Source: Candidatus Omnitrophota bacterium (GTDB lineage: Bacteria > Omnitrophota > Gorgyraeia > Duberdicusellales > 4484-171). From it: a DNA stretch of 64,000 bases. Both the position numbers and the translations under genes were made by a program. This document shows, in pieces, positions 3,572-61,300 of the stretch. The stretch spans positions 19,014-83,013 of the forward strand of contig PMCS01000009.1 of NCBI GenBank assembly GCA_003154195.1, written 5' to 3'. The first letter of the stretch is position 1, and each line of letters opens with the position of its first letter. The notes beneath the pieces were generated by a model. It was not told the DNA's origin and did not search any database. It was given only the letters and a program-made list of their open reading frames with translations.

Positions 3572-4331
3572 CCAAACGTCGGTAAAGATTAAGGCACAGG
3601 ACGTAAATTTTTTTTACGGGAAACACCAGGCATTGAAAAATATAAAACTGGATGTTTTAGCCAATCAGGTTACTGCGATTATCGGCCCTTCGGGCTGCGG
3701 AAAATCTACCTTTATCCGGCTGCTTAATCGTATGAACGAATTAGTCTCCAATACTGTTTTAACCGGAAGAATTTATCTGGATGGGCAGGATATATTCGCT
3801 TCTTGCGTTGATTCAGTCGAGATTAGGCGGCGTGTCGGGATGGTATTTCAAAAACCCAACCCCTTTCCCAAGAATATATTTGAAAACATAAGTTACGCTC
3901 TCGAGGTTAATGGCATTAAAAATAAACAATTTGTCGAAGAAAGGGTGATAGAATCTTTCAAGAAGGCGGCGTTATGGGATGAGGTGAAAGACCGGCTTCA
4001 TGACAGCGCGCTAAAATTATCCGGCGGACAACAGCAAAGGCTTTGCATTGCCCGTTGCCTGGCGATCAAGCCGGAGGTGATTTTGTTCGACGAACCCTGC
4101 GCCAGCCTCGACCCTATTTCGACGCGCAAGATCGAAGAGCTGATTCTGGAGTTGAAAAAAGATTATACTATTGCTATAGTTACGCACAATATGCAGCAGG
4201 CGGCAAGGGTATCTAACTATACTGGTTTTTTTCTTTTAGGCGAGTTGATCGAGTTTGATAAAACTGAAACGATATTCAAGTCTCCCAAAGATCAGCGGAC
4301 AGAAGATTATATTACAGGGAGGTTCGGATAA
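3564..4331 (+). CDS. pstB: Phosphate import ATP-binding protein PstB (canonical; operon 1)
   Basis: Walker [11 protein letters not shown]-loop VFQKPNPFP, signature LSGGQQQRL, Walker B ILFDEP, H-loop VTHNM. Confidence 0.9.
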
Positions 4332-4332
4332 T

Positions 4333-4731
4333 ATGAAAAGAATCTTATTTGTTTGTATAGAAAATTCCTGTCGTAGCCAGATTGCGGAAGGGTTTGCGAG
4401 GTTTTTCGGTAAAGATATTTTAGAAGCATACAGCGCGGGTTCGCGGCCTTCGGGAAAAATAAATCGTATGGCGATAGAAGTCATGCAGGAAATCGGTATT
4501 GATATCTCACGTCAGAAATCAAAAGGATTTCAGGAATTAGCGGTAAAGGGGTTTGATTATGTTGTTACGCTTGGTTGCAAAGACGTATGCCCTTTTATAC
4601 CGGCAACAGAACATATAGAATGGCAAATCAGCGACCCTGAGGATAAGCCAATAGAGTTCTTCCGAAAAGTCAGAGATGATATAAAAGTTAAAGTAGAAGA
4701 ACTTATACAAAATATTGAAGAAACAAAATAA
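4333..4731 (+). CDS. Arsenate reductase (thioredoxin-coupled ArsC) / low-molecular-weight protein-tyrosine phosphatase family protein embedded in pst operon 1
   Basis: N-terminal CX5R P-loop (VCIENSCRSQIAEG), about 130 aa, LMW-PTP/ArsC fold; ATG at 4333 immediately after the pstB stop. Confidence 0.65.
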   Translation: MKRILFVCIENSCRSQIAEGFARFFGKDILEAYSAGSRPSGKINRMAIEVMQEIGIDISRQKSKGFQELAVKGFDYVVTLGCKDVCPFIPATEHIEWQISDPEDKPIEFFRKVRDDIKVKVEELIQNIEETK

Positions 4732-4741
4732 GGGGGATACT

Positions 4742-5413
4742 ATGCAAAGGCATTTAGATGATGAATTAACCGGCTTAAAGACAGAGATACTCAGGATGGG
4801 GGTGATGGTGGAGGAGTCCATTTTTAAATCGGTTGAAGCCCTCAAGCAATTAAATGCCGATGACGCCCGGCAAGTGATTGTAGATGATAAGCTAATCGAT
4901 GAGCTGGAATTAAAAATCGAAGAGAAAAGTTTGAATCTTCTGGCTCTATACCAGCCGATGGCGGTTGATTTAAGATTTATCGTAATGGCGATGAAGATTA
5001 CTACCGATTTAGAACGGATGGCTGACTTGGCTGTTGATATCGCCCAACGCGTTCTGGAGATTGTTGATAAGCCGCCTTTAAAGCCGTTGATTGATATTCC
5101 TAAGCTTACAATTATCGCCCAGCAGATGACCAAAGACGCTATCAACGCGTTCGTAAACAAAGATTCCGATGCTGCCGCTAAAATGATTTTGATGGATTCG
5201 CAAGCGGATGATTTACGCAATGTTGTGCAACAAGAGCTAATCAATGATTATATGGCTAAAGATCCGACTACTGCTGACCGGGCTGTTCCACTTTTACTGA
5301 TCGCCAGGCATCTTGAACGAATATGCGACCATGCTACCAACATCGCAGAAGATGTAATTTATATGGTGAATGCCGCTGTTGTTAAACATCATCCCGAAAA
5401 AATTAAAGATTAG
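4742..5413 (+). CDS. phoU: Phosphate signalling complex protein PhoU (operon 1)
   Basis: Two PhoU repeats (…DLERMADLAVDIAQR… / …ARHLERICDHATNIAEDV…); RBS aagggggat before ATG 4742. Confidence 0.85.
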   Translation: MQRHLDDELTGLKTEILRMGVMVEESIFKSVEALKQLNADDARQVIVDDKLIDELELKIEEKSLNLLALYQPMAVDLRFIVMAMKITTDLERMADLAVDIAQRVLEIVDKPPLKPLIDIPKLTIIAQQMTKDAINAFVNKDSDAAAKMILMDSQADDLRNVVQQELINDYMAKDPTTADRAVPLLLIARHLERICDHATNIAEDVIYMVNAAVVKHHPEKIKD

Positions 5414-8403: not shown

Positions 8404-9143
8404 AAGTTGACATAAAAAATCTTAATATCTGGTTTGGTTCCGTGCATGCCCTGAAGCAGGTAAGCATGGTAATACAGGCTAACGAAATCTTAAGCGTAAT
8501 CGGTCCTTCCAACAGCGGTAAGACAACTTTTTTAAGAACGCTTAATCGTTTAAGTGATTTAAACCAGAATTTTAGAATGACCGGAACAATAAAGCTTGAA
8601 CAAGAAGATATCGGGAATATTGATACGGAATTATTGCGTAAAAAAGTAGGCATGGTATTTGCGCTGCCGCTCCCGCTTCCCCTGTCTATTTTTGATAATG
8701 TGGCTTACGGGGTAAGGATGCACGGCACGAAAAACAAGAAAATACTGAGAGAGATAGTGGAGGTATCGTTGAACGAAGCCTATCTCTGGGAAGAGGTAAA
8801 AGATAGGTTAAATGAATCAGCTTTTAAATTGTCCGGGGGCCAGCAACAGCGTTTGTGTATCGCTAGAACCCTTGCCGTTGAGCCGGAGGTAATTTTATTT
8901 GACGAGCCCTGTTCGGGGCTCGATCCTATATCCACCGCAAAAGTAGAAGATGCCCTGGTTAAGCTAAAACAAAAATACACGATAGTCCTGGTAACCAACA
9001 ATGTAAAGCAGGCAGCCAGGGTTGGTGATATGACCGCTTTCTTTTTAGGCGGCGAACTTATTGAACTGGATAAAACAGACAAGATTTTTACCGCGCCGCA
9101 AGACAAACGCACGGATGGTTATATCAGAGGAAAATTCGGATAA
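8397..9143 (+). CDS. pstB: PstB paralog with degenerate catalytic motifs (operon 2, first of two)
   Basis: Walker [10 protein letters not shown] (atypical), Q-loop Gln replaced (VFALPLPLP), H-loop His replaced (VTNNV), but canonical LSGGQQQRL signature and Walker B. Confidence 0.8.
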
Positions 9144-9184
9144 TCCCCTTCGGGGAGGAAGCGCGACAAAAGAAGGAGGCTCCA

Positions 9185-9940
9185 CTGGCCAAGATTATAA
9201 CTAAAAATTTAAACTTTTGGTACACAACATTCCAGGCCTTGAAAAATGTTGGCTCAAGCATAGAGGCAAACAGGATTACCGCTATAATCGGGCCTTCGGG
9301 ATGCGGTAAATCTACTTTGCTTAGGGTCTTCAACCGTATGAATGACTTGATTGAAGGCGCGCGTACGGAAGGAGAAGTTCTCATCGACGATACTGATATA
9401 CTGGATCCCCGCACAGATTTAGTAGTTTTACGTAAAAAAGTAGGGATGGTATTCCAGAGGCCTAATCCGTTTCCGCTATCAATATATGAAAATATTGTTT
9501 TTGGAGAAAAGATTCACGCGGATCGCTTAACAAGAGATAAATTAGATGAAATTGTTGAGAGAAGCCTGGGGGATGTTCTTTTGTGGGATGAATTAAAGGA
9601 TCAGCTTAATGAACCGGCCATGAGGTTATCATTAGAGCAGAAACAGAGACTTTGCATAGCCAGGCTTATTGCCGTTAAGCCCGACGTATTGTTAATGGAT
9701 GAGCCTTGTTCTACTTTAGATCCGCAGGCAACAGCAAGAGTCGAAGAATTAATGCGTGAACTAAAGAACAGATATACTATAATAATAGTTACTCATAATA
9801 TGCAGCAAGCAGCACGGGTTTCCGACGATACGGGTTTTATGCTTTTAGGCGAACTGATAGAGTTTGGTAAAACACATGAAATATTTACCGCGCCGCAAGA
9901 CAAACGCACGGAAGATTACATTACCGGAAGGTATGGATAA
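9185..9940 (+). CDS. pstB: PstB paralog with canonical Walker A/Q-loop/H-loop but degenerate signature motif (operon 2, second). Proposed CTG start at 9185; the first canonical-type start in frame is TTG 9239
   Basis: [23 protein letters not shown], signature LSLEQKQRL. The conserved N-terminal beta-strand [21 protein letters not shown] is encoded upstream of the TTG, with no ATG/GTG/TTG in frame after the 9071 stop; perfect SD aaggagg at 9172-9178. Confidence 0.7.
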
Positions 9941-10042
9941 AAATATCCCGCTTCGTGATCACGCCGAAATTCTCTACGATAGTTTCGGCGTACTCGCGGG
10001 ATTTCGCTAAACAAAAAATTTTTGTGCTCAAGGAGGTTAGAA

Positions 10043-10720
10043 ATGGAAAGACATGTCGACCAGGAACTAAAAGAACTGAATAAAGATATCTTAAAGATGG
10101 GCGCTTTAGCAGAGGAAGCCATCTACAAATCCATCGAAGCGTTGAAGAACAGGGACAGGGAAATGGCCGGGAGTGTCATAGAGAATGATTCCAATATTGA
10201 TAAATTGGAATTAGCCATAGATGAAAAGTGTATTGATTTGATAGCGCTCTACCAACCTATGGCCAAGGACCTCCGTTTTATTACAACCGGCATGAAAATA
10301 AATAGTGAATTGGAAAGGATAGCGGATATTGCAGTAGATATTGCGCAACGTACGCTTGAAATAGTAGACAAACCCCTTTTAAAGCCGCTGATTGATATAC
10401 CTAAGTTAACCGCTATTGCGCAAAACATGGTAAAGATGTCCATCGATGCGTTTGTCAAGGGCGATATTGCCTTAGCGAAAAAAGTTTTATTATCTGATTC
10501 CGAAGCTGATCAGCTTCGGAATGTTATACAAAAAGAGCTTATTGAAGATTATATGGTTAAAGACGCAGCTACTGCGCCAAGGGCTGTCCAGCTGTTGTTG
10601 ATCGCTCGTTTTTTAGAGCGCATATGCGATCATGCGACGAATATCGCAGAAGACGTGATTTACATGGTTCAGGCAGAAGTTGTGAGGCATCACCCCGAGA
10701 AATTAAAGAATGGAAAATAA
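10043..10720 (+). CDS. phoU: PhoU (operon 2)
   Basis: Two PhoU repeats; RBS aaggagg before ATG 10043. Confidence 0.85.
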   Translation: MERHVDQELKELNKDILKMGALAEEAIYKSIEALKNRDREMAGSVIENDSNIDKLELAIDEKCIDLIALYQPMAKDLRFITTGMKINSELERIADIAVDIAQRTLEIVDKPLLKPLIDIPKLTAIAQNMVKMSIDAFVKGDIALAKKVLLSDSEADQLRNVIQKELIEDYMVKDAATAPRAVQLLLIARFLERICDHATNIAEDVIYMVQAEVVRHHPEKLKNGK

Positions 10721-10805: not shown

Positions 10806-10865
10806 CATCCGCGCAAGCGGATAGCGGATATTTATTTTTTACTGCGTAAAAAATAAATATTATAT
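10806..10865 (+). promoter_or_regulatory. Conserved bipartite element, copy 1: GC hairpin (catccgcgcaagcggat) plus AT-rich palindrome (atttattttttac-tgc-gtaaaaaataaat); terminator-like
   Basis: Near-identical copies at 16000-16048 and 47659-47717. Confidence 0.4.
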
Positions 10866-10953
10866 TAGTTGAAAGTTTTTTGGTTATAGGGTATCATATT
10901 ACCACTCATATTTAAAACTTTATAATATAGTATTCATACATCTTGGGGCAAAA

Positions 10954-11652
10954 ATGTTTATTCGTATACTGTCTTCATTATCATTCTGTATATTTTTTGC
11001 TTCCTGCGCCGCGACCCAAAACACGATACAAAATAACTCTGCCGTACGCGCCGGGGTGCCAAGCATTGAGCCTTATAATTCTGCCCTTTCTTCTTGCGAT
11101 CATCCTGCCTTAGAAAAAACTCAATATTACATCGTAAAGCCGGGCGATTCCTTGAGGCTGATCGCGGAAAAGTTTAATCTAAGCATAGAAAAAATAATCG
11201 AAAAAAATCATATCGCTAAACCCGGTAATTTACGCGCCGGCCAATTAGTGATTATCCCCGGCACTGAATATGAAAAAGTAAACGCAGATTTCTTTTGGCC
11301 GATAAACGGCAAAATCGTAAGTTTTTATGGTGAGAATACCGACAGCATAAAGAACAAAGGGCTGAAAATAAAAACAACTTCTCAGGCCAACGTAAAAGCG
11401 GCGCGGGATGGAGAAGTGATTTTTTCCAACTATCTCAAAGGGTGGGGAAAAACCATCATCCTGAAACATAACGGCAATTTTTACACGGTCTACGCGAATT
11501 TAATCGACACCGCGACAAAAGAAGGCTCAAGCGTAAAAAGAGGCGAAGTTGTGGGGAAATTAGCGCTGAATAAAAAAAATGGCGAAGATACCTTATATTT
11601 TGAAATAAGAAGGGGGTGCCTGCCGCAAGACCCCATGAAGTATCTCCGGTAA
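10954..11652 (+). CDS. LysM-domain / M23-family (NlpD/EnvC-like) peptidase-like lipoprotein
   Basis: Signal with Cys, LysM (YYIVKPGDSLRLIAEKFNLS…), C-terminal M23/LytM-type domain apparently lacking catalytic His motifs; sigma70-like promoter ttgaaa-17-tatcat upstream. Confidence 0.7.
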   Translation: MFIRILSSLSFCIFFASCAATQNTIQNNSAVRAGVPSIEPYNSALSSCDHPALEKTQYYIVKPGDSLRLIAEKFNLSIEKIIEKNHIAKPGNLRAGQLVIIPGTEYEKVNADFFWPINGKIVSFYGENTDSIKNKGLKIKTTSQANVKAARDGEVIFSNYLKGWGKTIILKHNGNFYTVYANLIDTATKEGSSVKRGEVVGKLALNKKNGEDTLYFEIRRGCLPQDPMKYLR

Positions 11653-15797: not shown

Positions 15798-15999
15798 CCA
15801 CCTCCGCTTCGCGGAGTAAAAAACATCCCTTTCGTCACACCCTCTCTCCATTGGAACAATTCAGCGAAAGGAAAAATATTTTATCCCGAAGGTTAAGGAT
15901 ATGTTGATTTTTCCCAAAAATATTTTATAATGCTATTTAAGGTAAGGGCGTATTCTTGCTATAATCGATACCGGCGATAAATTTAGTGTATGCTTTTAT

Positions 16000-16048
16000 G
16001 TTTTTCATCCGCGAAGCGGATGAAAGATATTTTTTGCGGAGCAAAAAA
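16000..16048 (+). promoter_or_regulatory. Conserved bipartite element, copy 2 (catccgcgaagcggatg + atattttttgcggagcaaaaaatat) ending at the ATG of the SPOR gene
   Basis: See 10806 and 47659; extended -10 tgctataat at 15957-15965 upstream. Confidence 0.4.
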
Positions 16049-16049
16049 T

Positions 16050-16667
16050 ATGAAAGGAAAACAATTATATTTTTTTGAGTCCGACGAAGAAAAAAATATG
16101 CAAAAACGCAATATAGTAAATTTACCCCTGGACACCCTGATCATGTTCTCAATCGTTATCGCGCTATTGTTTGCTCTGATGTTTTCGCTCGGCGTAGAAA
16201 AGGGAAGAAAAATAGCGTATGCCTTAACGGAAAAAAATGAAATAAAACATGAGGCCGCCGTTTTAGATACGCCGGCGCCTGTCGGCGCTTCAGCCCCTAA
16301 AAAAATAATTTCCTCGCCGGGTGAAATTTACCAGAACCTTAAAACGCAAATACCGAACGCCCCGCGGCTGCAAACGGCAAATCTTGCGCCGGCGCCGGTT
16401 GAGGCCATTGCTTACGATACAAATGAACAAACGGCCGAAGAAAATACAACCAATAAATACCTTATCCAAGTCGCAACTTTCATGAAAGAAAATGTCGCCA
16501 ATCAGGAAGCAAAAAGCTTAGAAAAAAACGGTTATCCTGTATTGGTAGCGAAAAAAGGGAAATTTATCGTAGTCTTTGTAGGAAACTTCAAGGGCACGCA
16601 AGAAGCGCAAAAAAATATGAAAGAGTTAAAAAAGAAATATAAAGATTGTTTCTTAAGGAGGCTATAA
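16050..16667 (+). CDS. SPOR-domain protein (septal peptidoglycan-binding), single N-terminal TM helix; ORF is open from 15990
   Basis: C-terminal SPOR-like block YLIQVATFMKENVANQEAKSLEKNGYPVLVAKKGKFIVVFVGNFKG. Confidence 0.65.
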   Translation: MKGKQLYFFESDEEKNMQKRNIVNLPLDTLIMFSIVIALLFALMFSLGVEKGRKIAYALTEKNEIKHEAAVLDTPAPVGASAPKKIISSPGEIYQNLKTQIPNAPRLQTANLAPAPVEAIAYDTNEQTAEENTTNKYLIQVATFMKENVANQEAKSLEKNGYPVLVAKKGKFIVVFVGNFKGTQEAQKNMKELKKKYKDCFLRRL

Positions 16668-21233: not shown

Positions 21234-21274
21234 CCGAAAGGATACATAAAGAAATAATCTTGGGAAATTCGGGG

Positions 21275-21496
21275 AAATTCGGGGGACAGCTACCATAATT
21301 ATCCTTGACACCCTGTCTGCTTTTGCTACAAATTCGGGGGACAGCTACCATAATTATCCTTGACACCCTGTCTGCTTTTGCTAAACTTACCCCATGCCGA
21401 GAATGGCCAGAGCAAATTCGGGGGACAGCTACCATAATTATCCTTGACACCCTGTCTGCTTTTGCTAAACTTACCCCATGCCGAGAATGGCCAGAG
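21275..21496 (+). repeat. Tandem array U,(U+V),(U+V) immediately upstream of and overlapping the RAYT start; U carries the REP-like motif GGGGACAGCTACCATAATT; V duplicates the RAYT 5' end including ATGCCGAGAATGGCCAGAG
   Basis: Three near-identical direct copies at 21275, 21330 and 21415. Confidence 0.7.
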
Positions 21497-22143
21497 TAGT
21501 TATACCCGATATACCCCACCATATAATCCAAAGAGGTAATCGCCGTCAGCCGGTATTCTTTTCTGATGCCGATAAAAGAGCCTACCTGGATTATCTTCGT
21601 CTACATGCAAAGCCGGCCGGAATAAGCATCTGGGCATATTGCCTGATGGACAACCATGTACATTTAATCGCTGTGCCTAGGCATGAAGACAGTTTTGCCG
21701 ATGGCTTAAGCGAATCTCACAAACGTTATAGCCGTATGGTAAATTTCCGGGAAAACTGGCGCGGCCATCTCTGGGAGGGGAGATTCAAATCTTACCCATT
21801 GAATGAATTCCATCTATACGCGGCGATAAGATACGTTGAAAGAAATCCCGTACGCGCTAAAATAGTAAGACAAGCCTGGCAATACCCCTGGTCAAGCGCT
21901 CAATCTCATGTAAAGAAGGAAAAAGACAGTATTGTGGATAATTGTTTTATCTCTGATGAAATAAAAAACTGGGCAGAATATATCGCCCAAGAAGACAACG
22001 ACAACGATCTGGTACTATTCAGAAAACATTCCAACACAGGGAGGCCGCTGGGGGATAATAAATTCATCGATCTTCTTGAGGGGATAACCGGACGCATATT
22101 ACACAGGAAAAAACCCGGCCCAAAGATGGTCAAGGACAAATAA
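21478..22143 (+). CDS. IS200-like Y1 HUH transposase / REP-associated tyrosine transposase (RAYT), copy 1
   Basis: MPRMARVVIPDIPHHIIQRGNRRQ…, HUH motif DNHVHLIAVP, catalytic Tyr in AIRYVERNPV. Confidence 0.8.
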   Translation: MPRMARVVIPDIPHHIIQRGNRRQPVFFSDADKRAYLDYLRLHAKPAGISIWAYCLMDNHVHLIAVPRHEDSFADGLSESHKRYSRMVNFRENWRGHLWEGRFKSYPLNEFHLYAAIRYVERNPVRAKIVRQAWQYPWSSAQSHVKKEKDSIVDNCFISDEIKNWAEYIAQEDNDNDLVLFRKHSNTGRPLGDNKFIDLLEGITGRILHRKKPGPKMVKDK

Positions 22144-22160
22144 TTATGGTAGCTGTCCCC
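22142..22160 (+). repeat. Inverted copy (aattatggtagctgtcccc) of the 19-mer directly after the RAYT1 stop
   Basis: Exact reverse complement of ggggacagctaccataatt. Confidence 0.6.
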
Positions 22161-22200
22161 AGAATTACCAGAATTACAAAGACCTTATAACAGTCCCCAT

Positions 22201-23748: not shown

Positions 23749-24057
23749 CTATTTTCCCGGAGGGTTATCCGGGGAAGAATTTATCCGGATGATTTTTCCT
23801 TTCGCCAACCCTTCGGCAATCACGTGACGCGCTGCCTTAAGGATCCGGCCGAAGGTCTGCCGGGATATGCCCATATGCCCGGCTGCAGCCTCCTGTTCCA
23901 GGCCTTCGTAGTCGGCAAGCCGAATGGCTTCAAAATGGTCCAAACCGAGCTCGACTTCGTCGGGCCGGCCGGGCTTACCCCGGGGGCTGAATTGCCGGAT
24001 ATCCGGTTCCTTATCGATTACCCGTTGTTTCTTAGGACGTCCTTTTGGTTTCATCAT
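23749..24057 (-). CDS. DUF134/UPF0251-family small DNA-binding protein (sigma-70 region-4-like HTH)
   Basis: MMKPKGRPKK…VELGLDHFEAIRLADYEGLEQEAAAGHMGISRQTFGRILKAARHVIAEGLAKGKII pattern. Confidence 0.55.
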   Translation of the reverse strand: MMKPKGRPKKQRVIDKEPDIRQFSPRGKPGRPDEVELGLDHFEAIRLADYEGLEQEAAAGHMGISRQTFGRILKAARHVIAEGLAKGKIIRINSSPDNPPGK

Positions 24058-24438
24058 AAAAAATTACTCCGTAATTTTTTATCGGTCATGAAAACCTGCG
24101 GGTTTTCCGTCAAAAACGAGACTTTCCCTTTATTTTATTGTGAAATAAACCCCCCGGTTATTATGAGCGTATGCTCATAAATAATATACAAGATTTCCGG
24201 CGAAACTCAAGCGGTTTTTAGGTTAAGACGAGTATCTTTCGCAAGACAGATTTTTGAAGCTCCCCCGACGTGTTCCGGCGGAAAAATCTCTCCGAAGCCT
24301 CTTCACTGTAGGTGACGGGCGAAGGCGGATTAAAACATGGGGCAACAAAAAACGGCAGCAAAAAGCGGTATTGTAAAAATCTTCGGCGGAAGCGCCTTAA
24401 AATTTTCGGTGACTATCGGACAGACCTTAGGGCTGTCC

Positions 24439-32853: not shown

Positions 32854-32900
32854 TCCCCCTCCCATTATTGGCAGCGGCCTGTCAAAAACAAACAAATTTC

Positions 32901-33010
32901 AACCACATGATTGCACAGATTTCACTGAAAAATATAAATTCCGATAATGTAAAAAACTGAAAATCTTAAAAATCTGTGAAATCTTGTGAAATCAGTGGTT
33001 GCAGTTTTTA
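32901..33010 (+). repeat. MITE-like ~110-bp element with terminal inverted repeats aaccacatgatt.cacagatttcac; copy 1
   Basis: Matches 49398-49509. Confidence 0.5.
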
Positions 33011-33165
33011 TATCGCTTATAGTCTATCAGCTTAAAGACAAACAGCAAACAAGATACAGCACTCTTTAATTATAACAAAACGGGCAGGTTTTGGTAGAGT
33101 TTTAGCTTTTTATTTGAACTGCGGAAAACCGCCAATTTATTCGGCGGATGCCCGCCTTGCCCGCG

Positions 33166-33247
33166 GCTTCGCCGTGAGGCGAGCCGAGCAAGGCGAAGCA
33201 GGAATGCGGGGCAAATAATTCCTGCCTCGCTCGCCTCACGGCGAAGC
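33166..33247 (+). repeat. Long imperfect inverted repeat (gcttcgccgtgaggcgagc…/…gctcgcctcacggcgaagc) forming a ~30-bp-stem hairpin; contains a CTCGCTCGC core
   Basis: Seen in the sequence; GC-rich within AT-rich DNA. Confidence 0.5.
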
Positions 33248-33352
33248 CGTGGGCCTTATAGCTCATCAAGGCGGGCCGCCGCAGTCTGGCGGGATCATTT
33301 AGGTGAAGCCGGCGACGAAGTCGGCGGTAATTCACTTATATTTTAGCAGAAC

Positions 33353-35886: not shown

Positions 35887-35916
35887 ATTTCATTTTAAAT
35901 TACCCTTTGGACGTTG

Positions 35917-35977
35917 GCCATTTTAAATTTTTAAAAAATGAAAAATGTGAAATGACAAATGATAATTTTAAAATGAA
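35917..35977 (+). repeat. Conserved ~60-bp AT-rich intergenic element (gccattttaaatttttaaaaa.tga.aaatg…tgataattttaaaatgaat), copy 1
   Basis: Near-identical to 46297-46357. Confidence 0.4.
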
Positions 35978-35980
35978 TCT

Positions 35981-45664: not shown

Positions 45665-45730
45665 AACTTAATTTCTTAATCCGTGAAAATCTGCGTAATC
45701 TGTGGATGAAAATATTTTTAGTTTTTAATT
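45665..45730 (+). repeat. Partial copy of the ~90-bp ATCTG-triple-repeat element (…aatccgtgaaaatctgcgtaatctgtggatg…)
   Basis: Matches the cores at 54254, 55111 and 58351. Confidence 0.4.
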
Positions 45731-46212: not shown

Positions 46213-46296
46213 AGACTAAACTCTCTTAGCCGCAAAGACACCAAGGCACTAAGATTATAAATGCGTTATTTAATTTTAAATTGTTAATTGGTCATT

Positions 46297-46357
46297 TGCC
46301 ATTTTAAATTTTTAAAAATGATAAATGCTCAATGCCTGATGATAATTTTAAAATGAA
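46297..46357 (+). repeat. Conserved AT-rich intergenic element, copy 2
   Basis: See 35917-35977. Confidence 0.4.
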
Positions 46358-46401
46358 TTAATTATTGGTTTTGGTGTCTTTGTGCATTGGTGGCTGATTC
46401 T

Positions 46402-47589: not shown

Positions 47590-47618
47590 TTGACACATTA
47601 TTATTTTTAGAATACTAT
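47590..47618 (+). promoter_or_regulatory. Sigma70-like promoter TTGACA-17 bp-TACTAT upstream of the XRE-cupin regulator
   Basis: Read directly from the sequence. Confidence 0.45.
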
Positions 47619-47658: not shown

Positions 47659-47717
47659 TACACATTTTCATCCGCGAAGCGGATGATATTTATTTTTTTA
47701 CGAAGTAAAAAAATAAT
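47659..47717 (+). promoter_or_regulatory. Conserved bipartite element, copy 3 (catccgcgaagcggatg + ttatttttttacgaagtaaaaaaataa) ending at the ATG
   Basis: See 10806 and 16000. Confidence 0.4.
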
Positions 47718-48290
47718 ATGGAAATACACGAAAAAATAAAACTCATCCGCCGGCAAAAAAAACTAAAGCTCGCCGATGTCCATCGTACGATTAAAAAGAT
47801 ATTCCGGGATAACGCCGTGACCTACCGCACGCTCCAGCGAATCGAAGCGGGCGAACCGGGCGGCAAAGAAACTTCTCTCTACCAGGTCTGCGTCGGGCTG
47901 GATATCACCTCCCGGGAATTAAAAGAAAGTACCGAAGAAAAATCATCTCTCGCCGAACATACTAAAAGGTATAACCGTTATGGCCGCCATTACTTTGACA
48001 AAAATACTTACGCCGAGATTCTCACCGGCCGGCACGAACCCTTCACCGCTCTATTTTATTCGGTAAAAAAGGGGCAAAAAACTAAAACCGAGGTAAGTTC
48101 CGGCGATATAAAAGAAAAATGCCGCGAATGGCTTTTTGTACTCAAGGGAGGGATAATCGCCGTAGTCGGCGAAAAAAAATGGCGACTGGCAAAAGGCGAC
48201 TGCCTCTCTTTTGAGGGTCATGCCCCGCACTACTTCGAAAACCGGTCCGGCAAAGACGCTTCGTTTATCCTCGTCCGCTGCCCTAAATAA
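47718..48290 (+). CDS. XRE-family HTH plus C-terminal cupin-domain transcriptional regulator
   Basis: N-terminal HTH_3-like region (IKLIRRQKKLKLADV…), C-terminal cupin (…GDCLSFEGHAPHYFEN…). Confidence 0.7.
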   Translation: MEIHEKIKLIRRQKKLKLADVHRTIKKIFRDNAVTYRTLQRIEAGEPGGKETSLYQVCVGLDITSRELKESTEEKSSLAEHTKRYNRYGRHYFDKNTYAEILTGRHEPFTALFYSVKKGQKTKTEVSSGDIKEKCREWLFVLKGGIIAVVGEKKWRLAKGDCLSFEGHAPHYFENRSGKDASFILVRCPK

Positions 48291-49379: not shown

Positions 49380-49397
49380 AAAATTAGTTAAAAAACC

Positions 49398-49509
49398 AAA
49401 AACTGCAACCACATGATTACACAGATTTCACTGATTTCAGATTGATTTTGTATTTTTTTACATTATCGGAATTTGTATTTTTCAGTGTAATCGGTGGAAT
49501 CTTGTGGTT
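49398..49509 (+). repeat. MITE-like element, copy 2 (inverted relative to copy 1)
   Basis: Shares aaaaactgcaacca…ttttttacattatcggaattt.tatttttcagtg…tgtggtt with the reverse complement of 32901-33010. Confidence 0.5.
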
Positions 49510-54210: not shown

Positions 54211-54300
54211 TGTGTTATTCGTTGTTAAAATCTTTCCCCGCTTTTTCTTTCTTAATCTGTGAAAATCTGCGTAATCTGTGGACAAAATTTTTTGTTTTCT
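54211..54300 (+). repeat. ~90-bp conserved intergenic element with triple ATCTG core (aatctgtgaaaatctgcgtaatctgtggac) followed by an A/T tract; copy A
   Basis: Copies at 55081-55160, 58307-58394, partial at 45665-45730. Confidence 0.5.
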
Positions 54301-55080: not shown

Positions 55081-55160
55081 ATAATTCTCCTTCATCCTTC
55101 TTGCTTTACTCTGTGAAAATCTGTGTAATCTGTGGACAAATTTTTTTCGTTTTATCTATC
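55081..55160 (+). repeat. ~90-bp ATCTG element, copy B (ctctgtgaaaatctgtgtaatctgtggac)
   Basis: See 54211. Confidence 0.5.
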
Positions 55161-58306: not shown

Positions 58307-58394
58307 CGTGTAATTCGTTGTTAAATTTTTCTTTGCCCCCTTCTTTTTCTCAATCTGTAAAATCTGCGTAATCTGTGGTTAAAAATTATTGTTT
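58307..58394 (+). repeat. ~90-bp ATCTG element, copy C (caatctgtaaaatctgcgtaatctgtggtt)
   Basis: See 54211. Confidence 0.5.
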
Positions 58395-61300
58395 TTATTT
58401 TATCTCCTCCACTTCCCCACTATCAAAATAAACCAGATACCCCTTTATCTTCTTACCCGGATATATCTCCCCCACAATTTCTTTATATTCTTTTACCTGC
58501 TCGACATGCGCCGCGAAATTATCCTTCGAACTCTTAAAATCGATCAGCACCGCATCCTCCGCCACAATCAACCGGTCAATGCGTTTTAAATTGCCCCGTT
58601 TGTCGGCTACTTCGTATTCGCAAAAGACCAGCGCTTTATCCGTATAGAAAAATGGTTTTAAATCCGGCTGTTTCAATAAAGTGAGCGCCTTCTTCTCGTA
58701 AACGCTAAAATCATCAATTTGCGGAAATAATATTTTGGCATCGTTGATTGCCCGCGCCACCGCTTCTTTTTCTTTTCCCTTCGCCGGCGCCGTAATCCGG
58801 GAAAAAATCGCGTGCAAGACCGTTCCTTCTAAAATCACCTGCCGGCGGCACAGGCTTCCCTCGTCGCCGAATTCTTCGCGCAATAGTTTAATCCAGTTGC
58901 CATAACAGGAAGGCTTGATATACTCCGCCATATCGCTTTTAGCCTCTGACTTTAATCCCGCGACGGGCTTACCCAGCTCGACGTTAGCGCCAGGAAAAAA
59001 TAACCGGGCAAGGTTAGCGGCGTTAGCGCTCTTTTTCGGCAGAAAAGCATAAATCTCATCTTTGGCGCGGGTTAACGCGACATAGATATTATTTAATTCA
59101 TCGACGCAAGCCCGGGCGTAAGCGGCCTCATATTTTGCCGCCAGGGTTTCGCTGAAAAGACAATGGGCCTGGGTGATACGCAATAACCCTAAATCCGGGG
59201 CGTGAGCCTGGTCCACATAAGCCGACTTCATCTTACCGTCGGCAGGGTTGATGTCCATACGTAAAAACGGGATGACCACCACATTATATTCCAGGCCCTT
59301 AGCCTTATGGACGGTCAGCACTTTAACTGCCTCACTAAGCCTGGCGTTAACAAAAAAATCTTCTTCGGGGAAATCGCTCTCGAAAAACTTTAAGAAATCG
59401 CCGAGCCCCGGATAATCATTTTCCTGTTTTTTTATCACCTCTAAAAGCTTCATAAAAAATCCCTGGCTTTGGGGAAAAAGCCGGCCCAGTTCGAATTTCG
59501 CGTAAATATCCACCGTCAGTTCGTAGTTAGAAATAAATCCGACGCTGCGGAAAAATTCATCGAAAAACTTACCCCAGAGCGCGGGGTATTTTTTCCGGAA
59601 TAACCGGTATAGCCGCGCCTCCGGCAATTCCTTAGCCTTACGGGAATTAGTGCCGAATAAAAATCCGGCGGCTTCCTCGCGCGGCAAGCCGGCAGCGTTC
59701 GTAAAAATATCGCTTAAAATAAACAGAGCGAAACTGTTATCGTCGATCGGCGAATGCAGGAATTTGAGCAGATTCACCAGGGCGGCGACATGGGGATTGC
59801 GCCGGACATCAAGCGTCTTCTCCGACTCCACGGGAATACCCGCTTCAATCAACCAGGAACTGACCGCCTCGACGTCGTTATTATCGCGGCAGAGGAACGC
59901 GATGTCTCCCAGGGAAAAACGCTTCCGAGCGGAGGCGACGATCTCTAAAATCTTAGGCCGGATAAAATCATTACGCGCCTGGTTGCTGTCGGCATCGACG
60001 CGCTCGACGCGCACATACCCGCCGTTTTTACCGAAAGATACTTTTTGATGGGCATTACCGAAGGTATCGAGAATCTCCCGGCGCGCCTGGGCGCTAAGGC
60101 CAAAATCGTCGCCCGCCAGCGTTGCGGCTAAATTATCCCGCGAAAAGATGTGGTTGTTAAATTCAACGATTTCCTGCCGGCTGCGCCAATTGGTATCCAG
60201 TATCGAAGTTTGCGCGCCGAAACGGCCATAGCCACGCCGGACCTCGTCGAACAGCCGGGCCTCACCGCCGCGGAAGCGGTAAATCGCCTGCTTCCGGTCG
60301 CCGACGTAGAAAAACGTCCCGCCCGCGGAAAGAGCGTCTTCGACCATCAACTCTAAATTACGCCACTGTAACGAGCTCGTATCCTGGAACTCATCGATCA
60401 AATAATGCCGGTAACGCGCGGAAAGACGGTAATAAATCTCCGCCACGCTCAACCCCTCTTCGCCAAAAAGCGAACGCGCGAAGCGGTTAAGCTGCTCTAA
60501 AAACAGGACATCGTCCTTGCGGGAAAAATCTTCGAAGTAACGCTGGGCCTGCGCGAACAGCCGGACATAAGGGTTATACGCCACGGTCGCGTCAAGTTCA
60601 GCGAGGCCGGTGATTTTACGCCGTAGCGCCTGCCACTTTTTCACGAAACCGGCGGGCGCGATTTTCTTCTTATTCATCGGCGGTTCGTCCTGGGCTAAAA
60701 GCTTCGATAAATTGGCGATATCGAAAAAATCGTCGTGTTTTTCCAGGAACCGGCCGAGCCACCCGCCAAACGGGCCGTTGATACCCTCGGGAAGATGATT
60801 CTGCAGATCCTGAAGCTGGGCGAATATTTCTTTTTTCGCGGCAAGCACGTCTTTAGAGCCGCCTTTATAAGGGGCGAATTCGCCGCCGTAACAATTAGTC
60901 AGCGCGAACAATCCGCGCAGCATCTCTAAAATATTTTCTTTGGGGAACCAGCCGGTCCGCGCCTCGACAAAGAGATAATGGCGCAGAAACTCGGTAAAAA
61001 TTCCCAGAAGTTCTTTGTCCGAAACCGTCTCATCGACCGCTTTATCGAAAGCGTATTCGATATAATCGGCATAGCCGCGCCGAATGCCGAAACTGGCGGA
61101 ACGGCCGATATTTAAAGCGCAGCCCAAAAGCAAAGCGTTGATAAACGAATCGATTGTCTGGACACTGAAAAAATTATAATGGCGGATGAGTTCGTCTAAA
61201 ATCGCGCGGGCGCGCTCCGGCGATTCTTTTTCGGATAGGTTTAAAGCATTTAGGATATCCTGTTTTTCCTGGGGGCTGGTAAACTTATCCAGAGCGATTT

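Follow-up and report, generated by a model that had tools for sequence, protein, structure and literature searches.

A two-hairpin element that looks like a lineage-specific RNA punctuation module in a Candidatus Omnitrophota bacterium

Copies of the element in the window

The window, by which we mean the whole 64-kb stretch of DNA analysed here, from an uncultured Candidatus Omnitrophota bacterium of peat, carries three plus-strand copies of one element (S1, 10806-10860; S2, 16003-16051; S3, 47668-47716), all with the same layout: a GC hairpin (CATCCGC-GAA-GCGGATG; HP1) followed on the same strand by an AT-rich palindrome (HP2). A preliminary description had reported a bipartite element at three sites, and its presence is borne out. 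It also exceeds chance: a shuffled window would contain the hairpin pattern 0.13 times on average, a 15-mer search allowing at most 3 mismatches returned 10 matches against 3.0 expected, and the palindrome pattern matches in the 64 kb solely at the places of S1, S2 and S3. The copies and their surroundings are as follows.

10806..10822, plus strand: HP1 of S1, a variant, CATCCGCGCAAGCGGAT (CATCCGC-GCAA-GCGGAT), with a GNRA loop and one extra loop base
10828..10860, plus strand: HP2 of S1, ATATTTATTTTTTAC-TGC-GTAAAAAATAAATAT, a perfect 15-bp palindrome
15802..15816, minus strand: HP1-like hairpin CTCCGC-GAA-GCGGAG, adjoining a terminator-like hairpin after an HD-domain gene
15904..15931, plus strand: promoter-like TTGATT-16-TATAAT, 74 nt upstream of HP1 of S2
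16003..16025, plus strand: HP1 of S2, TTTCATCCGC-GAA-GCGGATGAAA, flagged as terminator-like
16027..16051, plus strand: HP2 of S2, ATATTTTTTGC-GGA-GCAAAAAATAT, 11-bp stem
16050..16667, plus strand: SPOR-domain gene (Pfam SPOR match), its start overlapping HP2 of S2
24056..24082, minus strand: solo hairpin of the same design and unrelated sequence, ATAAAAAATTAC-GGA-GTAATTTTTTAT
47590..47618, plus strand: promoter-like TTGACA-17-TACTAT, 50 nt upstream of HP1 of S3
47668..47686, plus strand: HP1 of S3, TCATCCGC-GAA-GCGGATGA, then TATTTATTTTTTT; flagged as terminator-like
47690..47716, plus strand: HP2 of S3, TTATTTTTTTAC-GAA-GTAAAAAAATAA, 12-bp stem, ending 1 nt before the ATG at 47718
47718..48290, plus strand: XRE-HTH/cupin gene, starting 1 nt past HP2 of S3; its upstream neighbour is divergent

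S2 and S3 align with 77% identity across 60 nt, and the folding z-scores of the three copies against shuffles range from -4.6 to -5.4; together with the covariation described below, these values uphold the idea of a shared, structured two-hairpin unit. The HP2 loop, earlier given as 3-5 nt, has 3 nt in S1, S2 and S3 alike. In S2, the 17-nt core of HP1 (CATCCGCGAAGCGGATG, 16006-16022) has its stem lengthened by U·A and U·G pairs, with a predicted stability of -14.4 kcal/mol at 37 °C. Its HP2 has GC/GC, not AC/GT, as the inner pair and a predicted energy of -8.8 kcal/mol at 37 °C and -15.9 kcal/mol at 10 °C; the GGA loop and the next G form GGAG at 16038-16041, 8 nt 5' of the ATG at 16050, whose A and U are the final two stem bases. 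This start codon is genuine (the orthologue N-termini all read MKGKQL.FF), and the promoter-like site ahead of S2 would place the copy within a leader of about 110-120 nt. The XRE-cupin start is also genuine, the open reading frame opening with the usual HTH N-terminus, and the good promoter announced at 47590 upstream of S3 corresponds to a promoter-like site, so placed that S3 probably lies inside a 5' UTR.

The claim of a leader element at three genes thus holds for S2 and S3, which abut genuine starts, but not for S1. The latter has an HP1 stem that is shorter than usual with an imperfect 3' arm, and an HP2 loop (TGC) that corresponds to the usual GCA read on the opposite strand; it is located 86 nt 3' of the phoU stop. 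Promoter-like sites at 10869-10926 lie between S1 and the LysM/M23 ATG at 10954 and, because S1 is upstream of these sites, it is not in the leader of that gene. Two further hairpins are related in design. The solo hairpin at 24056-24082 is AT-rich and of reversed polarity, its stem finishes with the A and U of the DUF134 ATG (24057-24055), and no HP1 lies ahead of it. The hairpin at 15802-15816 has the GCGAAGC apex in common with HP1, yet is not a bipartite copy.

Family, structure and placement of the element

We collected 15 distinct bipartite copies, namely the three of the window, one (L053) in another Omnitrophota genome and 11 on fen metagenome contigs. These contigs have the GC content of the window, do not overlap it and have another repeat in common with it; contigs and window presumably come from one genome. 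At least 10 solo HP2 copies accompany the 15 bipartite copies in about 220 kb, solo and bipartite copies alike being intergenic, and the AT hairpin occurs at at least 24 sites, including the interior of the rRNA operon and tRNA 3' ends. The genes behind the copies encode SPOR, XRE-cupin, Adk, Prs, RecO, NUDIX, glycosyltransferase and Wzz-like proteins and tRNA-Leu. A septal or cell-wall regulon, which the identity of the first targets had suggested, is contradicted by the copies before adk, prs, recO, the NUDIX and glycosyltransferase genes and tRNA-Leu: the element looks like a lineage-specific RNA "punctuation" module and not like a regulator of cell-wall genes.

Scanning a genome collection for HP1 plus a T-run gave at least 105 matches, nearly all of them generic terminators from many phyla, and one unrelated Clostridiales repeat family; among the matches listed, only L053 is a true bipartite element. 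L084 was set aside as a resemblance only, and L120, from the metagenome scan, as a coding-sequence false positive. The viral contigs scanned contain zero copies. At gathering score, Rfam has no match in the window and finds only rRNA and tRNA in nine loci, while a permissive Rfam scan at the element returned only chance-level snoRNA and leader matches (E ≥ 0.35) and no riboswitch at threshold. The apparent invariance of HP1 is partly a matter of ascertainment, because the metagenome search pattern held 13 of its 17 bases fixed; the extra copies found with a covariance model are variants, and we have withdrawn the invariance as a sign of a sequence-specific factor, these 13 bases having been preset by the search.

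Across the family, HP1 has a GC stem of 7-15 bp, a C(GAA)G apex and a U-rich stretch next to it, and its predicted stability at 37 °C ranges from -10 to -16 kcal/mol; HP2, separated from it by 4-12 nt, has an AU-rich stem with arms of 9-15 bp. Covariation is seen at 9 of the 13 pairs of HP2, with a score of 0.343 against 0.143 in shuffles (0 of 500 as high); sliding the partners brings it to 0.08 or less. The HP2 arms switch jointly between GC/GC (nine copies) and AC/GT (four), the sole hybrid being a G·U pair. The outer pair of HP1 covaries as well (CG in seven copies, UA in four, UG in two), and one variant copy, CATTCGC-GTAA-GCGAATG, has a compensatory change within this stem. G·U pairs sit on the strand of the gene only, their antisense equivalent being an A·C mismatch, and every hairpin lying 5' of a gene has its GNA loop on the sense strand. 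MFE and centroid folds contain the two independent hairpins alone, with no alternative antiterminator fold, and there is no room for a leader ORF at the element. The 5' flank is variable and merely pyrimidine-rich; the 3' flank is T, TA, TAAT or TAATT, then ATG. Neither terminal inverted repeats nor a target-site duplication could be seen, no flanks being repeated among the 15 copies.

The coupling to gene 5' ends is tight. Orientation matches the downstream gene in 13 of 14 copies (p = 0.002), and in L119 copies on both strands within 14 kb track their genes and not the direction of replication. The lone exception is an antisense copy within the 16S-tRNA-Ile spacer of the rRNA operon. A sense-strand terminator in that spacer would be harmful. 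Although ATG was absent from every search pattern used to find copies, 11/14 copies have the first base of the start codon at -3 to +1 nt relative to the HP2 stem end, and in another copy HP2 finishes on +1 of tRNA-Leu. In an unbiased histogram, the distances from hairpin to ATG peak sharply at -3 to +1 for 150 kb of this lineage, with no peak for 119 kb of relatives. Between one and three nucleotides of the AUG are inside the HP2 stem in six of the 10 ORF-abutting copies scored, the AUG following directly in the remainder. Copies are therefore not scattered without relation to gene starts, the finding that would have spoken against the preliminary description, and the palindrome does lie at the translation-initiation region as proposed there, HP2 pairing the bases just 5' of the AUG.

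HP2-like hairpins are also found next to tRNAs, on the 5' as on the 3' side, and at the 3' end of 16S: five of the six tRNAs in the fetched loci have a 5' hairpin, four have another immediately past the 3' end, and TATAAT stands ahead of the HP2-only leader of tRNA-Met. These hairpins lie beyond any translation role. Hairpins of unrelated sequence and the same design are found before tRNA-Val, at 24056-24082 in the window and in L125.

At protein-coding genes there is a further link to translation. GGA loops, which create GGAG, occur in six of the 11 ORF-abutting copies and in none of 10 others (Fisher p = 0.012); in these GGA-loop copies GGAG lies 8-10 nt ahead of the ATG, and the 16S 3' end contains CCUCC. 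Two GAA-loop copies are followed by a separate GGGAG or GGGGG and then ATG, and five ORF-abutting copies have GAA, GCA or CGAC loops without an SD-like sequence. Sequestration of the ribosome-binding site in the strict sense, as once proposed, does not fit, the SD-like GGAG being unpaired in the HP2 loop and not part of the stem. The predicted stability of HP2 roughly doubles from 37 °C to 10 °C.

With regard to transcription, good promoters are found 43-74 nt upstream of HP1 in S2, S3 and L053; those of S3 (50 nt) and L053 (43 nt) are sigma-70-like (10-11/12), and in both cases the upstream gene is divergent. A promoter directly 5' of HP1 is not a constant feature (5/15 copies within 160 nt against 3.5 in shuffles), and a promoter within the element that would give a leaderless transcript was also rejected, a -10 hexamer at the right distance being present in S3 only (S2 has GGAGCA at the corresponding position). 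A lenient terminator rule, which asks for 5 T or more among 8 nt beginning 0-2 nt past the stem, is satisfied by HP1 and its U-rich tail in 10/15 copies, and this lends the suggestion of a shared terminator partial support. A strong terminator or classical attenuator is not supported: the uninterrupted T6+ run starts 4-12 nt past the HP1 stem in 14/15 copies, a geometry that is poor for an efficient intrinsic terminator, and, besides the missing antiterminator fold, transcription must for the most part continue across the copy between secY and adk, because adk has no promoter-like site behind that copy.

A transcribed module and its alternatives

The explanation that we put forward, tentatively but as one with real plausibility, is that of a transcribed module combining a leaky terminator or protective hairpin with a structured ribosome-loading hairpin. 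The element belongs to a dispersed, lineage-specific family of two adjoining RNA hairpins located in the transcribed 5' flank of genes, either the 5' UTR or the space between two cistrons, and oriented with the gene. HP1 may act as a leaky intrinsic terminator, as a protective hairpin or as both, and would shield the downstream gene from upstream transcription. The U-run doubles as the 5' arm of HP2, the A-rich tract up to the start codon serving as its 3' arm. HP2 would thus package the ribosome-loading region, with GGAG displayed in the GNA triloop and the AUG at the base of the AU-rich stem, and this stem would be expected to damp translation initiation, more so in the cold.

Selfish or neutral DNA is a serious alternative, albeit an unlikely one. 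Here the element would be REP- or MITE-like palindromic DNA without a dedicated function, mobilised by an enzyme that acts on single-stranded DNA, for instance the window's RAYT-like Y1 transposase, and its position and orientation would be whatever purifying selection tolerates. The element is indeed many-copy and confined to one lineage, and it is missing at the syntenic sites of six other Omnitrophota: neither the SPOR and LysM/M23 sites in four syntenic loci nor secY-adk in two more contain the element, and a covariance model found no matches across these 119 kb. The secY-adk junction is a clean pair of filled and empty sites, with a gap of 125 nt in this lineage, exactly between the colinear SecY C-terminus and the adk ATG, and an overlap or 3 nt in two relatives. 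This absence from syntenic sites therefore indicates recent acquisition, which suits selfish spread and function alike. Long variants with a 71-nt insert within HP1 occur at two loci (91.5% identical), so the variants themselves get copied. Moreover, both apices are GCGNAGC, the sequence of a very stable DNA mini-hairpin (PMC13037366), and a RAYT-like gene is present at 21478-22143 and not at the syntenic place in relatives (Pfam Y1_Tnp; NCBIfam REP_Tyr_transpos with E = 2.7e-14 and 53.3 bits, where the curated cut-off is 80).

This gene, however, has its own, different inverted repeats of 27-30 nt (AATTCGGGGGACAGCTACCATAATTAT), which are absent from the rest of the fetched loci, and by the covariance model there is no HP1 or HP2 beside it; HP1/HP2 is consequently ruled out as its cognate REP. 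HP1 and HP2 are not inverted copies of each other, as a REPIN would require, and the marks of insertion sought in the flanks (terminal inverted repeats, target-site duplications) are not visible. Spacers and HP2 loops vary widely between copies while the stems covary, and the copies are therefore old and selected for pairing. Also against mere tolerance are the orientation, which follows the gene and not replication, the placement within a few nucleotides of start codons and the GGA-loop enrichment at ORFs, both of which need selection at the RNA level, and the recurrence of the same hairpin design in the unrelated sequences at tRNA-Val, 24056-24082 and L125.

A role in RNA processing seems to us improbable. 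An endonuclease would cut at the HP2 3' base or in the HP1-HP2 spacer, thereby freeing leaderless mRNAs that begin with AUG as well as mature tRNA 5' ends, while the upstream RNA would keep HP1 as a protective cap at its 3' end. At ORFs (-3 to +1 nt) as well as at tRNAs (0-3 nt), HP2 ends where the functional RNA begins, a coincidence that a translation signal alone leaves unexplained, and the frequency of hairpins at tRNA ends and at the 16S 3' end points the same way. Leaderless transcripts would be in keeping with the relatives, which appear to use such transcripts, TATAAT being found 6-7 nt before the SPOR ATG in L130 and L131, and with the Y1 gene of the window, which has TTGACA-N16-TAAACT 6 nt before its ATG; some copies, for their part, lie between cistrons with no promoter behind them. 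On the other side, no nuclease has emerged as a candidate, a hairpin removed before translation would have no use for the GGAG loops that are enriched at ORFs, and the distance from stem end to AUG shifts by a few nucleotides, with the AUG often within the stem. Furthermore, RNase P, which normally produces the 5' ends of tRNAs, has no need for a leader hairpin. It is equally doubtful whether hairpins made of a U-run, a GNA loop and an A-run form a general RNA punctuation system of this lineage that operates through a hairpin-recognising endonuclease.

We also give little credence to the copies being ordinary intrinsic terminators of upstream genes that share a stem, the A-tract being nothing but the usual A-richness before starts in a compact genome. 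The HP1 stem with its T-run is common across phyla, as the generic matches of the genome scan illustrate, the lenient rule is passed by two thirds of the copies, A-rich sequence ahead of ATG is frequent in this genome, and two copies are placed as terminators would be, S1 after phoU and a variant with truncated HP2 (L121, 5498) 47 nt past an ORF. But the S3, L053 and tRNA-Leu copies face divergent upstream genes and have nothing to terminate, and S2 is both 244 nt past a gene already equipped with a terminator-like hairpin and downstream of a promoter-like site. The A-tract exactly complements the U-tract and covaries with it over 9-15 bp, which is no by-product of A-richness; the setback of the U-run and the necessary read-through at secY-adk tell against terminators as well. 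Finally, a double-stranded DNA operator for a dimeric regulator, suggested by the near-perfect palindrome with its 3-bp centre and by one copy directly before the gene of an XRE-cupin regulator that could be autoregulated, is hardly credible in view of arm lengths of 9-15 bp, at least 24 sites with some inside the rRNA operon or at tRNA 3' ends, GNA loops and wobble pairs specific to the sense strand, and arms that change together where independent half-sites would give about 6/14 hybrids.

The element is a concrete cis element of about 50 nt whose second stem ends on the first nucleotides of start codons and tRNAs. To our knowledge, nothing is known about the control of gene expression in the uncultured Omnitrophota. 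If the proposed module is real, a portable "insulator plus ribosome-loading" cassette would have spread before unrelated housekeeping genes, with a bearing on operon break-up and retuning at junctions such as secY-adk. If processing were to prove true, it would represent a new way to leaderless mRNAs and tRNA 5' ends, independent of promoter position, and a natural counterpart to the Csy4-type insulators of synthetic biology. For annotation, strong terminator-like hairpins in Omnitrophota should not be taken for operon ends. The element might also be used as a compact natural part in synthetic biology and possibly as a lineage marker for peat metagenomes.

Comparison with known systems

Like intrinsic terminators and attenuators, the element has a GC-rich hairpin and a U-rich stretch in leaders or between cistrons. 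It differs from them in that the U-run is set back by 4-12 nt and is itself paired with the downstream A-run and, from attenuators in particular, in having neither an antiterminator alternative nor a leader peptide nor an aptamer. Read-through is moreover necessary at one copy at least. Translational operators and RNA thermometers, such as the phage MS2 replicase operator and fourU, place a hairpin at the start codon that melts with temperature or is clamped by a protein. HP2, which contains or abuts the start codon and has a modest, AU-rich predicted stability, may be likened to these; its U-run, however, pairs with an A-run and not with the SD, and the same design also flanks tRNAs and rRNA.

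Correia elements of Neisseria (100-150 bp, with terminal inverted repeats and TA target duplications) and other MITE-like repeats alter transcription, RNA processing and mRNA stability of their neighbours. The present element is reminiscent of Correia elements as a small dispersed repeat near gene starts, but it has about 50 nt, two internal hairpins, a fixed orientation and no terminal repeats or duplications. REPs, which act as mRNA stabilisers or attenuators, are found mostly 3' of genes, and a REPIN consists of two inverted copies of one REP, whereas the element has two different hairpins in a fixed order, placed directly against the following gene at its 5' end. The likeness to REP, BIME and REPIN-RAYT systems lies in short, multi-copy, lineage-specific extragenic palindromes in transcribed intergenic space and in the presence of a RAYT-like gene in the window (PMC3337134, PMC3116915), though the repeat that flanks this gene differs from the element, unlike in a cognate REP-RAYT pair.

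At the left end of IS200, a first inverted repeat is a Rho-independent terminator that shields tnpA from impinging transcription, and a second forms a 5'-UTR stem-loop that limits ribosome access (PMC4513863). The IS200 left end is nevertheless followed by a Y1 transposase ORF and paired with a right-end hairpin, while housekeeping genes and a tRNA, and no transposase, follow the copies of our element, which at about 50 nt is dispersed on its own, unlike the IS200 left end. Transcription of IS200 starts between the two hairpins, which in the element are merely 4-12 nt apart, and the SD is paired in IS200, whereas the element has GGAG in a loop and the start codon at the stem base. With its two successive inverted repeats just 5' of an ORF, the IS200 left end is nonetheless the closest analogue for the way in which the element may work.

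Architecture and census of the element

The preliminary description had placed a GC hairpin (HP1) and an AT-rich palindrome (HP2) at three sites of the window, and both are confirmed there as described:

10806-10860, + strand: variant element copy S1 (GCAA loop, HP1 imperfect, HP2 a perfect palindrome of 15 bp)
16003-16051, + strand: element copy S2, HP1 and HP2, abutting the SPOR ATG at 16050
47668-47716, + strand: element copy S3, HP1 and HP2, abutting the ATG at 47718

The HP1 core is CATCCGC-GAA-GCGGATG, a GC hairpin being present at all three sites; HP2, a few bases 3' of it, consists of a T-run, R, C, three loop bases, G, Y and an A-run. S2 and S3 are 77% identical over 60 nt, and each of the three copies is predicted to fold as two adjacent hairpins (z-scores -4.6 to -5.4). 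The HP1 pattern is far commoner in the window than expected from shuffles, and the HP2 pattern has no match in the 64 kb beyond S1, S2 and S3. In the strain copies, which exact protein matches locate on metagenome and MAG contigs (ENA WOOD18 scaffolds, NCBI GCA_003154645.1, JGI), the element is identical. The leader position proposed for all three genes holds for S2 and S3, which abut true starts (the SPOR orthologues all have the N-terminus MKGKQL.FF), and not for S1, which lies 86 nt 3' of phoU and is separated from the LysM/M23 ATG by promoter-like sites.

A scan of representative genomes with HP1 plus a T-run gave at least 105 matches; among the matches listed, nearly all are generic terminators from many phyla and one locus, from another Omnitrophota (L053), holds the full bipartite element, downstream of a TTGTCA-16-TATAAT promoter-like site and abutting the ATG of a Wzz-like gene. 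A metagenome scan, with two stem pairs free and the ATG outside the pattern, gave 18 loci and about 11 further distinct bipartite copies, leaving out one false positive (L120), same-locus duplicates and re-matches to S2 and S3; the "invariance" of HP1 is in part an artefact of the search pattern. The contigs bearing these copies have a GC content of 44-47%, as in the window, do not overlap it, have another repeat in common with it and probably belong to the same species or one genome. The genes 3' of the copies are adk, prs, recO, a NUDIX gene, a glycosyltransferase gene, the gene of a 565-aa protein, two small or unknown ORFs and tRNA-Leu(CAG); a further copy is antisense to an rRNA operon, within its 16S-tRNA-Ile spacer. 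Since these genes are mutually unrelated, the idea of a cell-wall regulon, raised by the septal and cell-wall targets first noticed, is ruled out.

Comparable hairpins occur elsewhere. In gut Clostridia, an unrelated, highly repeated element, CATTCAAAATAGCATCCGCGAAGCGGATTCCTCTTTTTTATGACTCCCTGTTTCGACCACTCC, has the same hairpin at more than 20 loci (L016, L022, L029, L032, L035, L039, L048, L056, L062, L065, L067 and others) in Clostridiales bacterium Firm_04 and in Ruminococcus and Oscillospiraceae MAGs. A LacPavin MAG labelled Kiritimatiellaeota (L084, 960-1780) has CATCCGC-GCA-GCGGATG three times, at intervals of about 370-400 nt; the surrounding DNA is GC-rich and repetitive, with heptamer repeats of the GTCAGAG type, and two of these hairpins are followed by the short palindrome ATGAATTTTTG-CCT-CAAAAATTCAT. 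The L084 copies resemble the element and are not of the same family.

Covariation and coupling to gene starts

The HP1 stem has 7-8 bp (more in some copies) and a predicted stability of -10 to -16 kcal/mol; its outer pair covaries (CG 7, UA 4, UG 2), and a variant copy has the compensatory change CATTCGC...GCGAATG. When 14 bipartite and 10 solo copies of HP2 were aligned on the loop, 9 of 13 pairs covaried, with a score of 0.343 versus 0.143 in shuffles (0/500 reached 0.343) and no more than 0.08 when the partners were slid. The HP2 stem is 9-15 bp long, and the ATG starts -3 to +1 nt from its end in 11 of 14 copies; at tRNA-Leu the stem end is the tRNA +1. In an unbiased histogram of the distance from the 3' end of every hairpin to the next ATG opening a long ORF, 150 kb of this lineage yield a sharp peak at -3 to +1; 119 kb of relatives yield no peak. 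Of 14 copies, 13 are oriented with the gene 3' of them (p=0.002); in one 14-kb locus with copies on both strands, each follows its own gene. G·U pairs are confined to the sense strand, and the sense-strand loops are G-N-A in all hairpins 5' of a gene. GGA loops are found in 6 of 11 ORF-abutting copies versus 0 of 10 others (p=0.012); such a loop gives GGAG 8-10 nt before the ATG, and the 16S 3' end of the lineage has CCUCC. Together, covariation, start coupling, orientation, sense-only G·U pairs and loop identity point to a function at the level of sense-strand RNA rather than of a double-stranded operator. The element is a structured intergenic repeat or leader hairpin with one unusual and well-supported property: the end of the second stem falls on the first nucleotides of the downstream gene.

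Lineage restriction and other repeats

Every homologue of SPOR and Adk carries the name Candidatus Omnitrophica or Omnitrophota, and the nearest are just 45% (SPOR) and 66% (Adk) identical, which indicates that the lineage branches in isolation within an uncultured phylum. The element is absent from four syntenic Omnitrophota loci despite the kept order LysM/M23 ... HD-SPOR-SH3-M50; 5' of SPOR, the relatives have either a TATAAT 6-7 nt from the ATG (leaderless-looking) or a leader with an SD. The secY and adk genes overlap or are 3 nt apart in two relatives; here they are 125 nt apart, a stretch that has the element at its end and fits exactly between the SecY C-terminus, which is colinear, and the ATG of adk. 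A covariance model found no copy in 119 kb of relatives. The missing counterparts mark the element as a lineage-specific acquisition. Two loci hold long variants (L121 2263-2390; L116 1836-2110, - strand) with a structured 71-nt insert in HP1 that is 91.5% identical between them and contains a further CCGAAGG hairpin, so that variants are themselves copied; L116 also has a 66-nt hairpin-forming insert in the HP2 loop, the HP2 arms still closing on the ATG. An Rfam search of both loci found nothing.

Selfish REP-like DNA would account for the lineage restriction and for filled versus empty sites, but it leaves covariation, orientation, start coupling and GGA enrichment unexplained; we consider it unlikely, if worth keeping in mind. 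The window does contain a RAYT-like Y1 transposase gene:

21478-22143: RAYT-like Y1 transposase ORF (NCBIfam REP_Tyr_transpos, 53 bits, below cut-off)
21273-21496 and 22140-22169: flanks of this ORF, with the 27-30-nt inverted repeats, AATTCGGGGGACAGCTACCATAATTAT, that bound the gene

A REP-RAYT relationship with the element was tested and rejected, as the repeats of the Y1 gene are its own, differ from the element and are not dispersed. The upstream repeat, promoter and first codons form a tandem duplication of 2-3 units of 84 nt, TTGACA-N16-TAAACT stands 6 nt before the ATG (leaderless-looking), and the gene is missing from the syntenic place in four related genomes.

The window holds further repeats:

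32969-33015, 45676-45722, 54252-54298, 55106-55152, 58349-58395: second dispersed repeat, about 47 nt (TTAATCTGTGAAAATCTGCGTAATCTGTGG...), built of AATCTGTG-like sub-repeats, intergenic, on both strands
32881-32928, 49387-49434: inverse copies of this repeat
35887-35978, 46268-46358: AT-rich intergenic segment of about 90 nt (ATTTxATTTTAAATT...TTTAAAATGAAT), copies 82% identical, one directly 3' of the galT-like gene near S3
33150-33294: GC-rich, long imperfect palindrome (...GCGGCTTCGCCGTGAGGCGAGC...GCTCGCCTCACGGCGAAGCCGTGGG...)

An 89-nt stretch of the last is 92% identical to metagenome contig L111 (5178-5266), making it another dispersed repeat common to both sequences. The GC skew switches sign at about 12-16 kb, which is also the peak of the cumulative skew; upstream lies a nearly complete second pst/phoU-like gene set (repeat families 4132-5406, 8944-10707).

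Boundary hairpins and possible function

A covariance model found HP2 alone at several places, and two hairpins of unrelated sequence abut start codons:

Solo HP2, downstream of a TATAAT box, its end 1 nt before tRNA-Met
Solo HP2, 2 nt before tRNA-Ala
Solo HP2, directly 3' of tRNA-Val, tRNA-Ile and tRNA-Ser
Solo HP2, 2 nt past the 3' end of the mature 16S
Solo HP2, in the 16S leader
24056-24082, - strand of the window: start-codon-abutting hairpin, unrelated sequence, GGA loop
Locus L125: start-codon-abutting hairpin, unrelated sequence

The 5' hairpins of tRNA-Ile and tRNA-Val differ in sequence and have the same design (C(GAA)G apex, AU-rich outer arms), ending 0-1 nt before the tRNA. These placements indicate that boundary hairpins are a habit of this genome, the bipartite element being the most repeated version. 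In the rRNA operon of L123 (2380-3080, 4590-5100, - strand) a small hairpin stands at every junction (after the 16S 3' end, before and after tRNA-Ile, before and after tRNA-Ala), with loops including UUCG, GCAA and GAA; the spacer also contains a sequence complementary to the 5' flank of the 16S, presumably the processing stem, and the tRNAs are without encoded CCA. In related Omnitrophota (L129 5015-5630, L130 9960-10012, L131 9890-10012), the SPOR ATG has -10 boxes 6-7 nt upstream of it, and -10-like boxes stand almost directly against the tRNA-Gly +1, which suggests that leaderless mRNAs, and perhaps leaderless tRNAs, are widespread in the phylum. A processing signal giving leaderless mRNAs and tRNA 5' ends is the sole reading to account for the same boundary rule at ORFs and tRNAs; we think it improbable.

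Good promoter-like sites (consensus matches only) lie 43-74 nt upstream of the element at S2, at S3, where one had been noted, and at L053, two of the three facing divergent genes; from these matches the element would be transcribed. Where the upstream gene is close and co-directional, the copies have no promoter-like site and would therefore lie between cistrons. HP1 is terminator-like: together with its U-rich tail, it passes a lenient rule for terminators in 10 of the 15 copies. A strong terminator or classical attenuator does not fit, because the predicted folds offer no alternative (antiterminator) structure, 4-12 nt separate HP1 from the clean U-run and adk would have to be read through at the secY-adk copy. 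HP1 is best matched by a leaky terminator, or by a hairpin that would protect or insulate, and the antisense placing of the rRNA-operon copy agrees with some sense-strand polarity; that the copies are plain terminators is disfavoured, and we think it as improbable as the processing signal. HP2 would package the ribosome-loading region: the U-run would pair with the A-rich sequence preceding the AUG, so that the loop carries the SD-like GGAG and the AUG lies at the base of the stem. At 37 C, HP2 has a predicted stability of -4 to -15 kcal/mol, which roughly doubles at 10 C, and it should damp translation initiation. The first interpretation is partly supported; its protein operator at HP2 is very improbable, given the sense-only G·U pairs, the strand-specific loops and the covariation. 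Although not a member of the IS200 family, the element has its closest working analogue in the left end of IS200, where a terminator hairpin is followed by an SD-sequestering stem-loop (PMC4513863).
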